Shown here one piece after another: positions 1 to 28,860 of a DNA stretch of 39,432 bases. Source of the stretch: a virus (lineage: Duplodnaviria; Heunggongvirae; Uroviricota; Caudoviricetes); the IMG/VR virus record IMGVR_UViG_2706794693_000007. The stretch is one strand, 5' to 3'. The notes below the pieces were generated by a model. That model was not told where the DNA came from, ran no database searches, and was given only the letters and a program-made list of their open reading frames with translations. Within the stretch, counting starts at the first letter, position 1. Each line of letters opens with the position of its first letter. The translations under genes were made by a program, and so were the position numbers.

Positions 1-14
1 TCGGTTTACGGGAA
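1..14. other. Half of a gix-like recombination site (TCGGTTTACGGGAA), truncated by window start
   Basis: Exact reverse complement of the left half of the site at 1306-1331; matches the GGTTTnCnGGAA-type half-site of Gin/Hin/Cin crossover sites as recalled. Confidence 0.5.
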
Positions 15-353
15 ACGGTAAACAGGGCGGCGAATGCCCTGCCATCGGACGGCACCGCCGTTGCCGCGAACAGGCTGGCAAATGCCCACACAATTAATGG
101 TGTTCCCTTTGACGGGACGCAGGATATCACTATCTCATCAGGAACAGTAACCGCCATAAGACTGGGGTCGGTGACCGCACATATGCCCGGAACATGGGAA
201 AGCTGGGATCTGAATCTGGGGGGCGGCAATGTTCTTACCGGAATTAAAGTACAGGATGTCGGTAAGAATACGGCAGATAACGTCGGCGGCGTGTATTACC
301 GGCCGTTGCAGTATCTGTTAAATGGAGCATGGGTGACGGCTGCAAGTATATAA
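1..353 (+). CDS. Tail fibre alternative variable C-terminal segment (S'v-like), 5'-partial, silent in this orientation
   Basis: Frame open from position 2; first ~40 aa ([26 protein letters not shown]...[12 protein letters not shown]) match the minus-strand fibre after its gix site, then diverge; shared C-terminal RPLQ motif. Confidence 0.6.
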   Translation, partial: GLRETVNRAANALPSDGTAVAANRLANAHTINGVPFDGTQDITISSGTVTAIRLGSVTAHMPGTWESWDLNLGGGNVLTGIKVQDVGKNTADNVGGVYYRPLQYLLNGAWVTAASI

Positions 354-384
354 TGATATTCAGAAGGCCTTCCGGCCTTCTTTA

Positions 385-906
385 TTACTGTGGCTGCTCA
401 GGCCATTTAATGGCGTTAAATTCAGCTTCTGTTTTAATGGCGGGTAGTTCCATTTTCTTCACCTGACTGATGTATGCCATCCATTGGGTAAGTGCTGCTC
501 TGTCTTCATCGCTGATGGTGCCCAGTTGTAGCTCCGTTCTCCAGTCATTAATTTTTTCATATGCCTGATTAAGATATGACTGGCGCATTGCTTCCAGTTT
601 TCTTGCGTAGTTAACCGGAATACGGGAGATTATGCCATTATCAAACTTCCAGTTTCCTGAAATATCCGTGCCTTCAGGGAGTTCATCGACCTCAACCACA
701 GAAAACCCCGCAGGATACAGCGCCGAGGCGTCCTGTGATATTGAGCAGATAACGCCGCTGTCAGGTGTTATGCAAAGTTTATATTTTTTGGTGAATAATG
801 GCAGGGATTCGTAGAAATCCTTACCATCTTCACTCTGGAAATACTGAACATTATTACCATATGGCATATTTTCAGGATAATAACGGGTTATATTTTTTAG
901 TTCCAT
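385..906 (-). CDS. Tail fibre assembly protein (Tfa / Mu U-like chaperone)
   Basis: 173 aa; strong RBS AGGAGG upstream of ATG; lies directly downstream of the minus-strand fibre variable part; C-terminal ...KWPEQPQ resembles Tfa family. Confidence 0.75.
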   Translation of the reverse strand: MELKNITRYYPENMPYGNNVQYFQSEDGKDFYESLPLFTKKYKLCITPDSGVICSISQDASALYPAGFSVVEVDELPEGTDISGNWKFDNGIISRIPVNYARKLEAMRQSYLNQAYEKINDWRTELQLGTISDEDRAALTQWMAYISQVKKMELPAIKTEAEFNAIKWPEQPQ

Positions 907-960
907 AAAATCCTCCTGGAAATAAATCTGTTTTAAAATATATTATTTACTGACTATTTA

Positions 961-1537
961 TAACTGAGATACCGTAATCCATGTACCTCCGACTAATTTT
1001 TGCAGGGGTCTGAATGCTATAAAATCGTTTGAAGCATCAACTTTACTGTCAATCTGCAGGCCTGCCATAACATTACCGTACGCAGAGTAATATGCCCCAC
1101 CGTACATTACCTGCCTGTTCTCTGCTCCCAGCCTGATATCCTGGATATATCGGGAATCCGCATCCTGCTGTGTTATACCAGAAGTGATGTTTATGTCCTG
1201 CGTCCCGTCAAAGGGAACCCCATTAATATTTCTTGGGGTGGCGAGTCTATTCGCGGCAACGGCGGTGCCGTCCGATGGCAGAGCATTCGCCGCCCTGTTT
1301 ACCGTTTCCCGTAAACCGACGTTATCGATAAAAGCCCCTTTATCCGGAATGTCTGCGCCGTTCTGCTCCCTGCGCAGGTAACGGTTATCACCTTCGCTTT
1401 TGCTGTAAACATCCAGATTATTACGGGCGGTTCCCTTATTCTCCAGGTCGGCGAGATTCTGATCCTTCGCCAGGGCATTAACGTCAGCGGGACCAAGACT
1501 GTTTTTTGTGGCAAGCGTCCCCAGACCAAGATAACCA
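961..1537 (-). CDS. Tail fibre protein, 3' portion (end of constant part plus variable Sv part); 5' continues at 6894-7275 if the 71-bp overlap is joined
   Basis: Open frame from 1537 to stop at 961-963; translation ...[35 protein letters not shown]...[17 protein letters not shown]; first 71 nt identical to 6894-6964. Confidence 0.75.
1306..1331. other. gix/hix-like 26-bp crossover site (TTCCCGTAAACCGACGTTATCGATAA) inside the tail-fibre gene
   Basis: Two 12-bp imperfect inverted half-sites around a 2-bp core; lies at the constant/variable junction of the fibre gene. Confidence 0.55.
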
Positions 1538-1750
1538 NNNNNNNNNNNNNNNNNNNNNNNNNNNNNNNNNNNNNNNNNNNNNNNNNNNNNNNNNNNNNNN
1601 NNNNNNNNNNNNNNNNNNNNNNNNNNNNNNNNNNNNNNNNNNNNNNNNNNNNNNNNNNNNNNNNNNNNNNNNNNNNNNNNNNNNNNNNNNNNNNNNNNNN
1701 NNNNNNNNNNNNNNNNNNNNNNNNNNNNNNNNNNNNNNNNNNNNNNNNNN
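1538..1750. other. Run of 213 N (unresolved or masked); hides the 5' end of gin
   Basis: N characters in sequence. Confidence 0.95.
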
Positions 1751-2253
1751 GTGCAGGATGTGAGCTGTTTTTCGAAGACAGAATAAGCGGTAAGACAAGG
1801 GAGCGTCCCGGACTTAAACGCGCATTAAAGCGACTCCGGCCAGGGGATACCCTGCTGGTCTGGAAACTGGATCGCCTTGGACGCAGTATGCAGCACCTTG
1901 TCCTTTTAACAGAAGAACTCCGGCAACGCGGCGTTAACTTCCGCAGCATTACGGACAATATTGATACATCCACTCCCATGGGACGTTTCTTTTTCCATAT
2001 AATGGGCGCGCTGGCGGAAATGGAGCGGGAACTCATTATTGAACGTACACGCGCGGGTCTTGCTGCTGCCCGTGCTCAGGGGCGTCATGGCGGCAGACCT
2101 CAGAAACTGACAGAGAAAGAGCGGGAGCAAATCGCCCGTTTGCTGGCTAATGGCGAGTCCCGTAAACAAATCGCACTGATATTTGATATTGGCCTTTCCA
2201 CCCTTTATCGTTATTTTCCTGCCTCACCAGCTCCGTCACCAAAAGTACCGTGA
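1751..2253 (+). CDS. gin: Serine DNA invertase of the Gin/Hin/Cin/Pin family, N-terminal ~24 codons lost in the N-run
   Basis: Translation AGCELFFEDRISGKTRERPGLKRALKRLRPGDTLLVWKLDRLGRSMQHLV...MGRFFFHIMGALAEMERELIIERT...GGRPQKLT closely matches the Gin/Hin resolvase-type catalytic core and C-terminal HTH. Confidence 0.9.
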
Positions 2254-2338
2254 CGCTTTTTTGAATTTCCGCAAAACACATATTTTTCAGCGGTCGCTAT
2301 TCTGACTCTGTTTAATTCAGAAACAGGCAGAAAAGACG

Positions 2339-4393
2339 ATGTCAGACTCCAAGTGGAAAATGCTCTCCGCCATGCCCGGAGAGTTTTCAGTCAAGGTTGC
2401 CGGTGGCACGGTGGCATTTATTGAAAGCCCTTTCCGCCCTTCGGGTAATAAAGGGGGGATCACCTTCGCAGACTGCGTGATCCGCTTCAGCACGAAAGAG
2501 CCATTATGGGTAATGCCGGTATCCGGTAATCCCAGTGCAGAAATCACCAGTTCAGGCGTGACTGGCATCATTCCAATCACATCTGACGTGGCCGGAACGC
2601 TCACGCCCTCCGACTGGAATGCACCGGATAACGCCGGGCCTTCCGGTAGCACGAATGGCAGCAGTTCAGAGCCGGAATATTACTTTGTTGTCATTCTCGC
2701 GGGTCAGTCAAATGGCATGGCCTACGGCGAGGGGCTGCCGTTACCGGATTCGTTTGACCGCCCGGACCCACGCATTAAGCAACTGGCACGCCGCAGTACG
2801 GTAACGCCCAACGGTACGTCGTGTACATACAACGACATCATTCCGGCAGACCACTGCCTGCATGATGTTCAGGATATGAGCGGGATAAACCACCCGAAAG
2901 CTGATCTGGCAAAAGGCCAGTACGGGACTGTCGGTCAGGGGTTGCATATTGCCAAAAAACTGCTTCCCTATATCCCACAGAATGCCGGGATACTTCTGGT
3001 GCCCTGTTGTCGTGGCGGGTCAGCATTCACCACTGGAGCCGACGGCTCATTCAGTGAGGCCAGCGGTGCTTCCGCTGATTCTTCACGCTGGGGGGCCGGT
3101 AAACCTCTGTATCAGGACCTGGTAAGCCGCACCAAAGTCGCGCTGGCGAAAAACCCGAAAAACAAACTTCTGGCTGTGGTCTGGATGCAGGGAGAGGCAG
3201 ACCTTGCCTCAGGAAGCCAGCAGCATAATAGTTTATTCACGGCCATGGTTCAGCAGTTCAGAACTGACCTGGCTCCGCTTGCTGCGCAGTGCGTGAGTGG
3301 AAATGCCACCACGGTGCCGTGGATTTGCGGTGATACCACGTATTACTGGAAAAACGCTGGCACCGATAAATATGAGGCAGTATACGGTGGCTACAAAGGC
3401 AAGGAAGCACAGAAAATTTTCTTTGTACCGTTCCTGACGGATGAGAATGGACAGAGCACGCCAACGAATGCTCCGGCGGAAGACCCGGATATTGTGGCTG
3501 TCGGGTATTACGGTGCAGCATCCCGAACCCAGGGCAGTTTTGTTTCGACACAGCGTGACAGCCATTTCAGCTCATGGGCACGCAGGGGCGTCATTTCAGA
3601 CCGTCTGGCCTCAGCTATTATGCTCCATGCAGGGCGCACGGCTGAACTGATGCGTGGGCAGACCGTGACACCACCGGATGAGAAGCCGTCACCTGATACA
3701 CCATCAAAACCGTCCACGCCACCCGCAGACACCACGACGATGAGTACGCTATTTGCTTACCGGGCATCTGAGTCTGAAGGACGGTTGACACCACAGGGTT
3801 GGGCTGCCGGAGGTGGCAAGGCTCAAATCGTGGATGATGCCGGAGCCAGCGGGGGTAAGGCAATGAAACTGACCAAGGAAACAGGAAGAGCCCCCTGGTA
3901 CCTTGAGCATGATGCTGGTAATGGTGCGGACCTGCTGGGTAAAGGTGGTCTTGTCAGTTGTCGTTTTAAACTCGATGGCGCGCTTACGGCTAATCAGTAC
4001 GCACTGGCGCTGTACTGGCCGGTTTCTGCCCTGCCGCAAGGGGTTACTCTGGAAGGAAATGCCGGTCATAACCTGCTGGCATCGTTCTACGTACAGAGCG
4101 ATGCCACAGACCTTAACGTGATGTATCACAAAGGAAACACGGCGCAGAACACGAAGCTGGGGTCATTCGGCGCATTTAATAACGAATGGCATACGCTGGG
4201 CTTCCGTTTTGCCGGTAACAACAGTATTGAGGTGACGCCGGTCATTGATGGTAAGGACGGGACACCATTCATGCTGTCGCAGTCTCCGGTCGGCACGTTT
4301 ACGGCAGACAAGTTGCGCGTGACCGATATCACTAAAAATGCGACTTACCCGGTACTGATTGACAGTATCGTGGTGGAAGTGAATAACGCGTAA
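2339..4393 (+). CDS. SASA-family (sialate O-acetylesterase-like, NanS-p-like) SGNH hydrolase with N-terminal domain, Pro/Thr-rich linker and C-terminal lectin-like domain
   Basis: 684 aa; motifs YYFVVILAGQSNGMAYGEG (GQSN block) and AVVWMQGEADL (WxQGE(S/A)D block); candidate Asp/His at RDSHFS; linker TPPDEKPSPDTPSKPSTPPADTTT; start codon uncertain (weak RBS). Confidence 0.6.
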   Translation: MSDSKWKMLSAMPGEFSVKVAGGTVAFIESPFRPSGNKGGITFADCVIRFSTKEPLWVMPVSGNPSAEITSSGVTGIIPITSDVAGTLTPSDWNAPDNAGPSGSTNGSSSEPEYYFVVILAGQSNGMAYGEGLPLPDSFDRPDPRIKQLARRSTVTPNGTSCTYNDIIPADHCLHDVQDMSGINHPKADLAKGQYGTVGQGLHIAKKLLPYIPQNAGILLVPCCRGGSAFTTGADGSFSEASGASADSSRWGAGKPLYQDLVSRTKVALAKNPKNKLLAVVWMQGEADLASGSQQHNSLFTAMVQQFRTDLAPLAAQCVSGNATTVPWICGDTTYYWKNAGTDKYEAVYGGYKGKEAQKIFFVPFLTDENGQSTPTNAPAEDPDIVAVGYYGAASRTQGSFVSTQRDSHFSSWARRGVISDRLASAIMLHAGRTAELMRGQTVTPPDEKPSPDTPSKPSTPPADTTTMSTLFAYRASESEGRLTPQGWAAGGGKAQIVDDAGASGGKAMKLTKETGRAPWYLEHDAGNGADLLGKGGLVSCRFKLDGALTANQYALALYWPVSALPQGVTLEGNAGHNLLASFYVQSDATDLNVMYHKGNTAQNTKLGSFGAFNNEWHTLGFRFAGNNSIEVTPVIDGKDGTPFMLSQSPVGTFTADKLRVTDITKNATYPVLIDSIVVEVNNA

Positions 4394-4400
4394 GCAGGAT

Positions 4401-4442
4401 AAAAAAATGCCGCCGGTAAGGGAAAACAAGAAACCGGCGGCA
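4401..4442 (-). terminator. Candidate intrinsic terminator, oriented for the minus strand
   Basis: 9-bp GC-rich stem GCCGCCGGT/ACCGGCGGC with 15-nt loop; run of 7 T follows on the minus strand, only an A-rich tract on the plus strand. Confidence 0.4.
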
Positions 4443-4537
4443 AAAAGATCGTTATATCCAAAGCAAAAAATGCAGTGCACCTTTTTACCTAACAGATATT
4501 ACCGGTGTCAACACCATGTCAATAATTGGGAGGGATA

Positions 4538-4720
4538 ATGACATTTTTACAGCTTATTTTATTGTATTTCTGCACGGCAGTATGTGCGTTATATCTGGTG
4601 AGTGGTGGTTATAAGGCCATCAGAAATTATGTTCGCCGCAAAATTGAGGACGCAGCAGCTGAAAAACTCAGTAAAACAGCGCAGGTAACTCCGCTCCCAA
4701 AAGACCCGACCCAGCCCTGA
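4538..4720 (+). CDS. Small membrane protein (60 aa, one N-terminal TM helix, charged C-terminus), function unknown
   Basis: RBS GGGAGGG 3 nt before ATG at 4538; MTFLQLILLYFCTAVCALYLVSGGYKAIRNY... hydrophobic N-terminus. Confidence 0.5.
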   Translation: MTFLQLILLYFCTAVCALYLVSGGYKAIRNYVRRKIEDAAAEKLSKTAQVTPLPKDPTQP

Positions 4721-4755
4721 TTGCAGGGCTTTATTCCCGCATAAGGAGGATATAC

Positions 4756-5010
4756 ATGCCAGAAATTAAAGGCACCGTCACTGAAGACCTGGTAAAACAG
4801 GCACTGTATTCCGGTGAAGTAAATAAGTTGCTGAAAGCGCAGGTCCGCAAGGATTTTGAGGCACAAATCGACACTTACGTTGATGAAGTGCTGGCAAAAC
4901 TTATTGGGCCAGCAGTTGCGGCCAGTGATGCTGATAATGAGCCGAAAACCGACGCGCAGCCAGAGCAACCAGACCCGGCTCAGCCCGGAACTGACAGTAC
5001 CATGATGTAA
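4756..5010 (+). CDS. Hypothetical 84-aa acidic protein
   Basis: Strong RBS TAAGGAGG 7 nt before ATG; coding-like composition; hairpins downstream. Confidence 0.6.
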   Translation: MPEIKGTVTEDLVKQALYSGEVNKLLKAQVRKDFEAQIDTYVDEVLAKLIGPAVAASDADNEPKTDAQPEQPDPAQPGTDSTMM

Positions 5011-5177
5011 CAATACAAACCGGTGGTGTCCTCTGCCGGTTTGACACTAATGAAAACATCTTTGCCGCTATCCAGCCATATGTAATCGCTGGATAGTATT
5101 TCGTATTCAGAAATATAGCTGCTTATGGAGCAGTCAATCCTGCTTCCCCATCCGGGCAGGCAAATGAACCGGTATCA

Positions 5178-5471
5178 TTAGTCCGATTCACGCTTTTGTA
5201 GAATCGTTCCCAGAATGCTATACAGCTCATTAGCCTGTTGCTCCATCATTGAGACGGAGGCTATACGGTGCAAAGTGATTTCAGGAGGTGGCACACCTCC
5301 ATCTTCTTGCTGTGGAGGAAAAACATAAGATTTAATAAAAAAGTTGAAGCATATGAACTCTCCCGCACTCGAACTGTATTTGCAGGCATCTGAATAATCG
5401 GAAAAATAATCATTATAGATTTCCGCATTTTCAATCATTTTTCGATTTCTCGTCGTTACATGATTGTCCAT
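5178..5471 (-). CDS. Hypothetical 97-aa protein, convergent with the 84-aa gene
   Basis: RBS AAGAGG before ATG at 5471; AT-rich ORF with no recognisable motif. Confidence 0.5.
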   Translation of the reverse strand: MDNHVTTRNRKMIENAEIYNDYFSDYSDACKYSSSAGEFICFNFFIKSYVFPPQQEDGGVPPPEITLHRIASVSMMEQQANELYSILGTILQKRESD

Positions 5472-5594
5472 AGCAGCCTCTTACGCTGGCAATTAACCAA
5501 TTGACTTCTATAAATTAGTTGATTTGTTTGCTTTGCGGTATTCAAATGTACAATCATTCAGCACTTATGCGTTACAGCACCGTTTAAAATTAGT

Positions 5595-5680
5595 GATCAA
5601 ACTCATAAATTTTCGCTAATGACATTTCGTGTTATTTGTTGTATCAATTAAATAAATCAAATCGATCGTTTTTGTCGATC
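5595..5680. promoter_or_regulatory. Upstream regulatory region of com-mom with three GATC (Dam) sites
   Basis: GATC at 5595-5598, 5664-5667, 5677-5680, the last two inside near-direct repeats TCGATCG; Mu mom is known to be controlled through upstream Dam sites. Confidence 0.4.
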
Positions 5681-5727
5681 GATTGAGTGATAAAGATATC
5701 AACAACAAAGCAGGAGGTTATGCGGCC

Positions 5728-5928
5728 ATGTATCGAAACATACGGTGCCGACATTGTAACAAGCTACTGGCACGAGCCAGCTTCAGTTATCTGGAAGTTA
5801 AATGTCCGCGCTGTAAAACCCTCAATCAAATCACATCTCAGAGCGCCACAGAGCACCCCACATACACAAGGAAATCCTGTCGTGGGGAACAGAAAGCAAG
5901 TTACATCCCGTATCATCAGCACGCCTGA
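5728..5928 (+). CDS. com: Com-like zinc-finger translational activator of mom
   Basis: 66 aa; AGGAGG RBS 10 nt upstream; [14 protein letters not shown]...[10 protein letters not shown] with CxxC...CxxC; immediately precedes and overlaps mom as in Mu. Confidence 0.75.
5856..5887 (+). promoter_or_regulatory. Stem-loop sequestering the putative mom start codon (candidate Com target)
   Basis: CCCCAC (5856-5861) pairs with GTGGGG (5882-5887); the 20-nt loop contains AAGGA; GTG at 5882 is in the mom frame. Confidence 0.45.
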
Positions 5929-6619
5929 ACTTATTCACTATAACGACAATATCGTCGGTTATGGCTCCCGTGAGTTACGGGTTGAGACAATAAGTTGCTG
6001 GCTGGCCCGGCTGGTCGTCGTCAATAAACATTACAGCCATCGTTTCGTAAATAATTCCTACCTTCATCTGGGCATATTTTCAGAACGGGAGCTGGTTGGC
6101 GTAATGCAATGGGGTTATGCCCTTAATCCAAACAATGGTGCACGCGTCGTAACTGGCACGCAGAACCGCGAATATATGGAGCTTAACCGGTTATGGCTGC
6201 ATGACTGTATGCCGAGAAACTCCGAATCAAGGGCAATCAGTTACGCGCTCAAACTAATCAGACAACTTTATCCGCAGGTGCAGTGGGTTCAGTCGTTTGC
6301 AGATGAGCGTTGTGGCTGTCTTGGTGTCGTGTACCAGGCAAGCAATTTTGATTATGTAGGCAGTCATGAAACAACATTCTATGAACTTGATGGCGAGTGG
6401 TATCACGAGATTTGCAAGAATGCAATCAAACGAGGAGGACAGCGAGGTGAACATCTGCGGGCTAATATCGACAGAGCCAGTGTTCATAAATTCCGTCAGT
6501 TTCGTTACATCCGGTTTCTGGACAAGAGAGCCAGAAAACGCCTTAACACAAAGCTATTCAAAGTCCAGCCTTACCCAAAACCACAAACAGTTAAAACTGG
6601 TTTGAAAGAGAGTGAATGA
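5882..6619 (+). CDS. mom: Mom-like DNA adenine modification protein; start assigned to GTG 5882, uncertain
   Basis: Long ORF in the frame overlapping the 3' end of com; com-mom architecture, size about 245 aa; no ATG between com and residue ~130 so a non-ATG start is required. Confidence 0.65.
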
Positions 6620-6664
6620 ACGCTTAAAAACTCATTCTAAAACTCAAAAGAAAAGCGCCGATTT

Positions 6665-6681
6665 AGTATCAAATAAGTTGC
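6665..6681 (+). repeat. Prophage end-like repeat (GTATCAAATAAGTTGCG) just downstream of mom
   Basis: 17-nt near-match to GTATCAAATGAGTTGCC at 38755-38771 and to repeats at 38817 and 38902; preceded by GCCGATTT as at 38767. Confidence 0.45.
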
Positions 6682-6691
6682 GTATCGGCGT

Positions 6692-6893
6692 NNNNNNNNN
6701 NNNNNNNNNNNNNNNNNNNNNNNNNNNNNNNNNNNNNNNNNNNNNNNNNNNNNNNNNNNNNNNNNNNNNNNNNNNNNNNNNNNNNNNNNNNNNNNNNNNN
6801 NNNNNNNNNNNNNNNNNNNNNNNNNNNNNNNNNNNNNNNNNNNNNNNNNNNNNNNNNNNNNNNNNNNNNNNNNNNNNNNNNNNNNNNNNNNNN
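6692..6893. other. Run of 202 N (unresolved or masked)
   Basis: N characters in sequence. Confidence 0.95.
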
Positions 6894-7275
6894 TCGCCAG
6901 GGCATTAACGTCAGCGGGACCAAGACTGTTTTTTGTGGCAAGCGTCCCCAGACCAAGATAACCACGGGCCAGACGCTGGGCCTCCGCACCGGCATCAGCA
7001 ATTTCTTTCAGGTTATTTTTCCGGGAAAAGGCATTCGCAGCGATAATGGCTTTAATGGACAGCGTAAGCTGGTTTAACTGCGCCTTATCCGGCTGAATAC
7101 TGGCTTCAGCCAGAATATTCAGCAGTTCGGCCTGGAGAATATTCAGCCAGTCCTGACCAATCCAGCTGATACCTTTTTGTCCGTCACCTTCGGTAAACCA
7201 GGTGGTGGTATTACTCTGCGCCGGTGCCAGCGCAGGCATATTCGCCACGCCGGAATTATTATCAACATGAAACAT
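6894..7275 (-). CDS. Tail fibre protein, N-terminal constant part (Sc), 3' end runs into N-run
   Basis: ATG at 7275 overlapping upstream stop; MFHVDNNSGVANMPALAPAQ...[24 protein letters not shown]; last 71 nt identical to 1467-1537. Confidence 0.75.
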
Positions 7276-14909: not shown

Positions 14910-15161
14910 NNNNNNNNNNNNNNNNNNNNNNNNNNNNNNNNNNNNNNNNNNNNNNNNNNNNNNNNNNNNNNNNNNNNNNNNNNNNNNNNNNNNNNNNNNN
15001 NNNNNNNNNNNNNNNNNNNNNNNNNNNNNNNNNNNNNNNNNNNNNNNNNNNNNNNNNNNNNNNNNNNNNNNNNNNNNNNNNNNNNNNNNNNNNNNNNNNN
15101 NNNNNNNNNNNNNNNNNNNNNNNNNNNNNNNNNNNNNNNNNNNNNNNNNNNNNNNNNNNNN
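14910..15161. other. Run of 252 N (unresolved or masked) spanning the end of the tail tube gene and the start of the chaperone gene
   Basis: N characters in sequence. Confidence 0.95.
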
Positions 15162-28359: not shown

Positions 28360-28860
28360 TCAGACTTTCGGCAAATCGTAACGACATAACCATTCATCCG
28401 CCGAACGGCGGGCCTCAAGACCGGGGAGTTTTACCCCCTTTGAATAAATCCAGCGGATATACTGCTTACAGGACGCGGGCATCTGCCCGGCATTGATAAG
28501 GCGCAGGAGCGTGGAGTTGCGAAAGTTCGTTTCACCGGCCCAGAAAATCCAGGAGGCCAGCGCCACCGTCTGACCACGGGTAAGCGGCACCTGAACATGA
28601 CGATCGATAGCCGCAAAGGCCCATTTCATGTCCTTTTCCAGCAGCTCCAGACACTCTTCATCAGTTTTTGTCATCCCCGGTTTCACATCCGGGCCGGTAT
28701 GGCCGTAACAGATGGTGGGGGTGCCGGTGGGATCAATGTACGTGGTGTTTTCTTTCCCTTCCCAGTAGCCGGTGTAGTGCGTGGCAATGGTGAACGTCCC
28801 GGCTCCGGCCAGAACAAGGGCAATCAGCTTTTTACGCAGGGGTGCGGGGAGTTTTGGCAT
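28360..28860 (-). CDS. SAR endolysin (T4-lysozyme-type, signal-arrest-release N-terminus)
   Basis: 166 aa; Gly/Ala-rich weakly hydrophobic N-terminus LIALVLAGAGTFTIATHY; lysozyme block YWEGKENTTYIDPTGTPTICYGHT. Confidence 0.8.
   Translation of the reverse strand: MPKLPAPLRKKLIALVLAGAGTFTIATHYTGYWEGKENTTYIDPTGTPTICYGHTGPDVKPGMTKTDEECLELLEKDMKWAFAAIDRHVQVPLTRGQTVALASWIFWAGETNFRNSTLLRLINAGQMPASCKQYIRWIYSKGVKLPGLEARRSADEWLCRYDLPKV

Follow-up and report, generated by a model that had tools for sequence, protein, structure and literature searches.

The DNA analysed here (IMG/VR virus record IMGVR_UViG_2706794693_000007; 39,432 nucleotides (nt), hereafter the window) is an Escherichia coli Mu-like prophage. 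Three small open reading frames (ORFs) lie at positions 4401–5471, and the gene order around them is gin (1753–2250), a sialate O-acetylesterase gene (2339–4393), the three ORFs, com (5728–5928) and mom (to 6619). The original prediction, made from the letters of the window alone, had read the interval as three orphan genes with converging hairpins beside the esterase. Comparison with related loci shows that it combines the distal end of a mobile esterase "moron" with an orphan cassette that is separate from it, both within a cargo site that extends from gin to com-mom. The features of the locus, with protein lengths in amino acids (aa), are as follows.

2339–4393, plus strand: NanS-p-type sialate O-acetylesterase, 684 aa, with SASA (PF03629) and DUF6645 (PF20350) matches in Pfam; head of the cassette.
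4399–4475, minus strand: predicted Hfq-type small RNA (sRNA) gene of ~77 nt, EcOnc33-like, with conserved promoter and terminator; putative start near 4475, U-run at 4407–4401.
4482–4511, minus strand: putative sRNA promoter as read from the sequence, with −35 TTGACA (4511–4506), an 18-nt spacer and −10 TAAAAA (4487–4482).
4408–4442, minus strand: intrinsic terminator hairpin with a 10-bp stem, a 15-nt loop and U7 at 4407–4401; abuts the esterase stop codon.
4538–4720, plus strand: DUF1378 protein, 60 aa (PF07125, phrog_494), with ribosome-binding site GGGAGGG at 4528–4534.
4756–5010, plus strand: DUF826 protein, 84 aa, acidic (PF05696, phrog_311), with ribosome-binding site AAGGAGG at 4743–4749 and a 6-nt spacer.
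5016–5043, either strand: hairpin 1, 11 bp, from folding; directly after the DUF826 stop codon.
5067–5097, plus strand: hairpin 2, 10 bp + 2 bp, followed by UAUUUCGUAUUC, from folding; inside the variable cassette.
5119–5133, minus strand: weak terminator-like hairpin from a pattern scan, downstream of the 97-aa gene.
5178–5471, minus strand: 97-aa orphan gene, read from the upstream ATG, with ribosome-binding site AAGAGG at 5482–5477.
5045–5605, no strand: variable cargo slot, the location of the 97-aa gene; limits approximate, from alignment with other Mu-like lineages.

Two of the three ORFs belong to known protein families, and the description of three orphans therefore holds for the 97-aa gene and fails for the other two. 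The 60-aa protein matches PF07125 at 109.4 bits (cut-off 25) over residues 1–58 of the 59-position profile and PHROG 494 with an E-value of 1e-32; the 84-aa protein matches PF05696 at 58.7 bits (cut-off 25) over residues 1–57 and PHROG 311 over its full length (E 5e-28). The ORFs themselves are present as the original prediction described them, the first with a single transmembrane (TM) segment and the second acidic and preceded by a strong ribosome-binding site. Ratios of nonsynonymous to synonymous substitution rates (dN/dS) of 0.12–0.32 for DUF1378 and 0.09–0.40 for DUF826 show purifying selection, and thus mark both as real, constrained genes. A protein search of phage records with DUF826 recovered two records only, because the alleles of lambdoid phages are too diverged.

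DUF1378 has a single hydrophobic stretch (residues ~3–25) followed by the basic residues K26, R29, R33, R34 and K35, giving a layout of N-terminal TM helix, basic amphipathic segment and proline-rich tail; in the family alignment a core of LYF..V..L.SGGY is invariant within the hydrophobic helix. By the positive-inside rule the protein would be a single-pass inner-membrane protein with its N-terminus outside and its C-terminus inside. DUF826 carries 16 D/E against 8 K/R, and AlphaFold2 models it with a predicted local distance difference test score (pLDDT) of 81–94 at residues 11–50 and of <50 past residue 55, that is, as one long confident helix (residues 20–50) and a disordered acidic/proline tail ending in PGTDxxMM. 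The charge complementarity of the basic segment and the acidic helix suggests a membrane-bound DUF1378–DUF826 heterodimer. Searches against solved structures returned noise only for all three proteins, and structure prediction gave an unusable model for the 97-aa protein (pLDDT 50).

The genomic setting of the pair was surveyed in 80 viral contigs seeded on DUF1378, together with annotated loci from complete genomes and phages. The order esterase, DUF1378, DUF826 was found at 85 of the 85 related loci with a readable upstream flank; at every surveyed locus with enough flank DUF1378 has the esterase as its immediate upstream neighbour and DUF826 as its immediate downstream one. The "tight pair" of the original prediction is borne out, as the two genes are adjacent at every locus that holds both, and a lack of conservation in related prophages, named beforehand as the result that would count against the proposal, is not what is seen for these two genes. 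In lambdoid phages the order is Q, sometimes Shiga toxin genes (stx), esterase, DUF1378, DUF826, holin and lysozyme; in Mu-like prophages it is gin, esterase, DUF1378, DUF826, a variable minus-strand gene, com and mom. The same cassette order and orientation also occur in Citrobacter. Named homologues of the pair come nearly all from Escherichia and Shigella, with the addition of Citrobacter farmeri, and a survey of 185,579 species-representative genomes added Cedecea neteri alone. For Stx2a phages, ORFs of DUF826 and DUF1378 have been mentioned as lying between nanS-p and S, without further comment (PMC10462455).

The block has the marks of mobile cargo. Fourteen complete E. coli genomes match positions 4394–5700 at 100% identity, and in them the stretch lies at the right end of Mu-like prophages whose chromosomal insertion sites differ; megablast of the same positions against phage records gave no match. 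G+C content is 0.48, 0.42 and 0.40 across 4501–6000 and 0.55–0.68 in the structural core genes, as the original prediction had noted in calling the region AT-rich relative to the phage core. Its further suggestion of acquired cargo is upheld by this low G+C, by the presence of the same block on two unrelated backbones and by divergence at synonymous sites (dS), which between Mu-like lineages is 0.5–1.7 for the cargo and 0.22 for mom. Because cargo dS lies far above that of mom, the cassette alleles have been exchanged rather than inherited with the backbone.

Several loci carry rearranged forms of the cassette. The hybrid contig IMGVR_UViG_2617270951_000022 (positions 96–5136) has gin and an esterase that is 99% identical to the esterase of the window, followed by DUF1378 and DUF826 of lambdoid type, holin and lysozyme; it is either a Mu-like/lambdoid recombinant with its junction inside the cassette or an assembly chimera. 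In four lambdoid contigs (L047, L050, L058 and L070) DUF826 is cut at ~58% of its length and a short esterase-like fragment comes next, which suggests rearrangement within the cassette. In the Shiga toxin (Stx) 2 prophage Sp5 of strain Sakai (L094, 2335–5586) the nanS-p esterase is disrupted at its 3′ end by an IS629/IS1203 insertion sequence (IS), which the VT2-Sakai phage record does not have; DUF1378 and DUF826 still lie downstream. Among the annotated products of the K-12 cryptic prophages Qin and DLP12 none is labelled DUF826 or DUF1378, and by these labels an assignment of YdfR or YbcW to the two families is not borne out.

The 3′ boundary of the block is marked by the hairpin after DUF826. 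The original prediction placed hairpins between the convergent genes, and they were recovered at 5016–5043 and 5067–5097, where together they fold better than shuffled sequence (joint z −5.0); the fold around 5119–5133 is no better than shuffles. Four Mu-like lineages keep the hairpin at 5016–5043, which in the FORC_069 type has a good U-tract; that at 5067–5097 is kept only partly in the CI5 lineage. Lambdoid loci have a terminator-like hairpin at the equivalent place, after DUF826 and before the holin; a clear U-tract on the hairpin after DUF826 is found in some lineages only. Since the hairpin follows DUF826 and precedes the holin, the pair belongs to the esterase unit and not to the lysis cassette.

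This boundary bears on two possible roles of the pair. The first is that a small inner-membrane protein and its partner modulate lysis by tuning the timing of a holin or of a signal-arrest-release (SAR) endolysin: the pair lies directly upstream of a class II holin and lysozyme at every surveyed lambdoid locus that reaches that far, on both backbones the endolysin has a hydrophobic, SAR-like segment at its N-terminus, and the pair is co-oriented with late genes in all contexts, that of Cedecea included. Set against this are the terminator between pair and holin, the position of the window's endolysin gene (28360–28860), ~23 kb from the pair in Mu-like prophages, and the lack of any holin or antiholin family match in Pfam and PHROGs; the idea is possible but doubtful. 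The second is that the pair serves the esterase itself, tethering NanS-p to the membrane or aiding its exit toward extracellular O-acetylated sialic acids. No signal peptide is seen in the sequence of the esterase N-terminus, the pair strictly adjoins the esterase on two backbones, in loci from E. coli, from Shigella and from Citrobacter, the hairpin stands after DUF826 rather than after the esterase (as a clear terminator in some lineages only), and the whole block has moved jointly into Mu-like phages, with no holin nearby. An accessory role is nevertheless unlikely, given that esterases lacking the pair exist and are retained, that the Cedecea DUF1378 stands alone with no esterase, and that neither protein resembles secretion or holin families. 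Residues 1–115 of the window's esterase (2339–2680) match neither DUF1737, with which lambdoid and Citrobacter esterases begin, nor any other Pfam family, and in PHROGs the esterase weakly matched tail and tail-fibre proteins.

At the 5′ boundary of the pair lies a further, predicted gene. The original prediction had placed a minus-strand terminator at 4401–4442; the hairpin and its U7 are real, but the element does not stand alone and is, on the comparative evidence, the 3′ end of a conserved predicted sRNA gene rather than a stray terminator. The hairpin at 4408–4442 has a folding energy of −20.1 kcal/mol (z −5.7 to −6.6 against shuffles), with the U7 on the minus strand only. When 31–33 distinct esterase–DUF1378 spacer variants were compared on the minus strand, promoter and terminator were found to be kept in 30 of 31 distinct intergenic variants, lineage L009 being the one without the element. 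The recurring pattern is TTGAC(A), 16–19 nt, TAAAAA and, ~70–100 nt later, a GC-rich hairpin with a U-run that abuts the esterase stop; across diverged variants TTGAC hardly varies and a TAAAAA-like box is retained. A consensus promoter scan missed 4482–4511 because of its −10 rule. The terminator stem also covaries: 5 of its 10 pairs change on both sides and none of 500 shuffles reaches the observed score, and 84.6% of alignment cells pair, vs. at most 58.5% with the partner slid.

The promoter rule derived from these spacers was applied to enteropathogenic E. coli (EPEC) E2348/69, where it predicts a PasA of 84 nt and a PasC of 77 nt, as compared with published lengths of 85 nt and 79 nt (PMC8550237; bioRxiv 10.64898/2026.05.13.724894). 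A closer relative of the window's sRNA is found in E. coli O157 Sakai. The copy in prophage Sp6 sits between ECs_1527 (esterase) and ECs_1528 (DUF1378) and has the same promoter, the same stem sequence and the same strand; it is ~85% identical to that of the window, as estimated by eye and not computed, with one difference in the 5′ 27 nt and only a few within the 5′ 35 nt. Tree et al. (2014) reported EcOnc33 in Sp6 (1557089–1557136, minus strand) as an RNA of ~71 nt on northern blot, present in five of five Hfq data sets from crosslinking and analysis of cDNA (CRAC), and EcOnc37 in the Mu-like prophage Sp18 (5077340–5077410, minus strand; PMC4104026, including Table S2). These coordinates refer to an older genome version, for which an offset of ~+137 nt was calibrated on AsxR; once shifted, the EcOnc33 and EcOnc37 peaks both lie in esterase–DUF1378 spacers, EcOnc33 having its 5′ edge only a few nt from the predicted start. 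We infer from this that EcOnc33 and EcOnc37 are the sRNAs of these spacers, an assignment that is ours and not stated in that paper.

On this assignment the window's sRNA agrees with EcOnc33 and EcOnc37 in strand and in site, which is the interval from the esterase stop to DUF1378. It differs from EcOnc33 in the terminator loop and in the spacer before the stem, and the Sp18 version (EcOnc37) has a different body. Hfq binding and expression were seen for the Sakai copies (PMC4104026), of which the window's copy is a predicted relative. PasA and PasC resemble it as antisense sRNAs of ~80 nt directly downstream of a sialate esterase, with TTGACA and an A-rich −10 element, and in PasC the terminator likewise abuts the esterase stop codon. 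Their RNA bodies have no detectable sequence similarity to that of the window, however, and they precede a holin or an IS element rather than DUF1378 and DUF826; a covariance model built from PasA, the unit adjacent to it and PasC gave no hit in the window at E-values up to 10, and membership was rejected. PasA and PasC are therefore positional analogues. The adjacent unit, which lies between PasA and the esterase stop at 2466–2531 on the minus strand of the E2348/69 contig (L091), is a second sRNA-like unit and is complete, with TTGACA, 17–18 nt, GAAAAA and a terminator that abuts the stop codon, and is PasC-like; in the literature this stretch is taken as a 236-nt read-through form of PasA.

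An Rfam scan of the window gave no model at its gathering score; Esr41 (RF02676) reached 22.2 bits vs. a gathering threshold of 102 and was rejected, Esr41 proper being on SpLE1, and a second weak match lies at the equivalent site in VT2-Sakai. Pairing of the sRNA 5′ 35 nt with the esterase start region (2309–2368) was predicted at ~−22 to −25 kcal/mol, which lies in the top 0.3–0.8% for the window and CI5 types and not for Sp6, Sp18 or VT2-Sakai; it was not counted as evidence.

Expression of the pair can be considered in this setting. A promoter scan found no consensus plus-strand promoter in 4394–4537, and on the plus strand the hairpin before DUF1378 is not followed by a U-tract; for these reasons DUF1378 and DUF826 are most likely made by read-through. 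Such dependence weighs on the suggestion in the original prediction that the layout is that of a superinfection-exclusion or toxin–antitoxin (TA) module. That suggestion draws on layout, a small single-TM protein and a tightly linked small partner within cargo, and on transcripts of a DUF826 copy detected by microarray in uninduced O157 cultures. Against it, neither PADLOC, Pfam nor NCBIfam gave a significant defence or TA match (PADLOC listed PbeC alone, with 12.9 bits and E 0.008), the pair lacks a dedicated promoter, and there is no autoregulatory DNA-binding domain, which is normal in type II antitoxins. In lambdoid phages the pair belongs to the Q-dependent late operon and, because it lies behind a Q-dependent late terminator, should be silent in lysogens. 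With no positive evidence from the family searches, a module of this kind is quite unlikely, more so than lysis modulation or service to the esterase.

The proposed mechanism combines these elements. Read-through transcription, from the Q-dependent late transcript in lambdoid phages and from gin/esterase transcription in the window, would produce the pair and would end at 5016–5097. The sRNA promoter would fire head-on into the esterase–pair transcript, and the sRNA, fully complementary to the esterase–DUF1378 junction, would probably lower or uncouple expression of the pair; it may also act in trans via Hfq, as its O157 relatives may. DUF1378 would insert into the inner membrane with its N-terminus outside and its basic helix in the cytoplasm, where the acidic helix of DUF826 would probably dock on it. 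Taken as a whole, this account of the distal part of an esterase moron, with a read-through pair opposed by an antisense sRNA, is modestly probable. As a best guess at the role, modulation of the membrane or of lysis in the late phase ranks first, as a tentative choice, followed by the unlikely release or placement of the esterase, then by the less likely exclusion or defence and, lowest, by a toxin-like peptide with its neutraliser.

Several observations weigh against this account. In EPEC E2348/69 a holin or an IS element comes after the esterase and its sRNA genes, and DUF1378 and DUF826 are both absent; phage records number 347 with the esterase and 309 with DUF1378, ~38 of the 347 esterase records being without DUF1378. 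In Cedecea neteri DUF1378 stands solo after a tail-fibre gene, with no esterase; this homologue (L095, NZ_BCTL01000092.1, 4797–4961) is of 54 aa, has neither DUF826 nor the antisense promoter, and is followed by a hairpin and by an ORF that, read from its translation and not family-scanned, likely encodes a DNA methylase. DUF1378 and DUF826 alleles reassort among loci, which argues against a tightly co-adapted interface between the two proteins. The 5′ untranslated region (UTR) of DUF1378 shows no significant structure and no sequestration of the ribosome-binding site, with fold z ~0 in four lineages. The matching of EcOnc33 and EcOnc37 to their sites rests on the ~+137 nt offset calibrated on AsxR, and expression of the window's own sRNA copy is predicted from its relatives only. 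Literature searches by locus tag or DUF name returned no functional work on the pair, and one microarray mention of ECs1211.

Among known arrangements, the NanS-p moron of Stx and other lambdoid prophages (933W L0105 region; Q-stx-nanS-p-DUF1378-DUF826-S) has the same three families in the same order, a SASA + DUF6645 esterase, an antisense sRNA after the esterase stop and a hairpin after DUF826. The window differs in lying between gin and com-mom, in having no holin downstream and in being followed by a minus-strand orphan, and its esterase differs from lambdoid esterases in an N-terminal ~115 aa without a DUF1737 hit.

Type I TA loci with a divergent Hfq-type sRNA include tisB/istR-1, shoB/ohsC and zorO/orzO. 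These resemble the window in pairing a gene for a small single-TM protein with a divergent sRNA complementary to the upstream mRNA, and the layout would fit if the mRNA begins upstream of 4399, the mRNA start being itself putative. The window departs from them in that DUF1378, with 60 aa and a 35-aa polar tail, is larger than most of the toxins and has a protein partner, in that there is no structured 5′ UTR, and in that the sRNA is also found without DUF1378. It is an improbable proposal that DUF1378 is a membrane-active small protein whose read-through synthesis is gated by the divergent, fully complementary EcOnc33-type sRNA, in a manner like that of type I TA or of a standby site, with DUF826 as a second, protein-level antagonist or adaptor.

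The third ORF is of a different kind. The 97-aa ORF is present and convergent as the original prediction stated, and by sequence comparison it is a true orphan in a lineage-variable slot. Its protein falls with homologues of at least 79% identity in 14 clusters, every named one belonging to E. coli or Shigella; HMMER, run exhaustively over 1.84 billion representative proteins, returned its own cluster and fragments only (3 representatives), and there was no family match in Pfam, PHROG, PADLOC or NCBIfam and no match in phage records. Similarity among Mu-like lineages ends just after hairpin 1 and returns near 5605, upstream of com; other Mu-like lineages hold in the slot an unrelated 154-aa gene with no homology to the 97-aa gene. 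Non-conservation in related prophages is thus seen in part for this gene.

It may be asked whether the 97-aa ORF is a gene at all or a chance open frame in AT-rich cargo DNA. Its homologues are confined to a narrow E. coli/Shigella group, its structural model is of low confidence, no convincing promoter was found, and RefSeq places its start differently, at Met12, which gives 86 aa. The upstream ATG is the start that has the AAGAGG ribosome-binding site, a good one, and the ORF is convergent with hairpins on its 3′ side. The CI5 allele, at 79% identity, keeps the frame open and the full-length start and encodes 100 aa, the sole length change being a 3-codon in-frame indel near the C-terminus, and dN/dS against strain CI5 is 0.36. 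A chance frame is, on these points, unlikely.

Upstream of com-mom, at 5660–5684, lies a GATC-rich perfect palindrome, AATCGATCGTTTTTGTCGATCGATT, which is invariant in four Mu-like lineages and is probably the methylation-sensitive control region of mom; it also gave a weak IS102 RNA match in Rfam. The window itself contains N runs at 1538–1750, 6692–6893 and 14910–15161 and resembles a scaffold or masked record. Positions 1–6691 are colinear with genome JE86-ST05 (L001, 4892–11297) to the right end of the prophage, and positions from 6894 onward are the reverse complement of the genes for tail fibre and baseplate (L001, from 4744 downward); host DNA, not tail fibre, comes after mom in complete genomes. 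An exact 71-nt direct repeat (1467–1537 and 6894–6964) borders two of the N runs. Inverted repeats at 1–79/1241–1319 (79 nt, 95%) and 93–142/1178–1227 (50 nt, 84%) bracket a tail-fibre-assembly segment beside gin, the layout expected of a Gin-invertible, G-like segment.

The window is a further copy of known, uncharacterised families in documented prophage cargo, plus an overlooked sRNA gene and one orphan. For annotation this means that two genes are not orphans and that a "stray" terminator belongs to a predicted sRNA gene; the region is otherwise ordinary phage cargo. If the improbable gating scheme were true, a three-component control module would be carried on the esterase moron of Stx and Mu-like prophages. 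The block of esterase, sRNA, DUF1378 and DUF826 is present in many copies in Shiga-toxin-producing and other pathogenic E. coli; that it moves intact between lambdoid and Mu-like prophages, and that the pair shares a hairpin-bounded unit with the esterase and has an antisense sRNA promoter facing it, narrows where to look.

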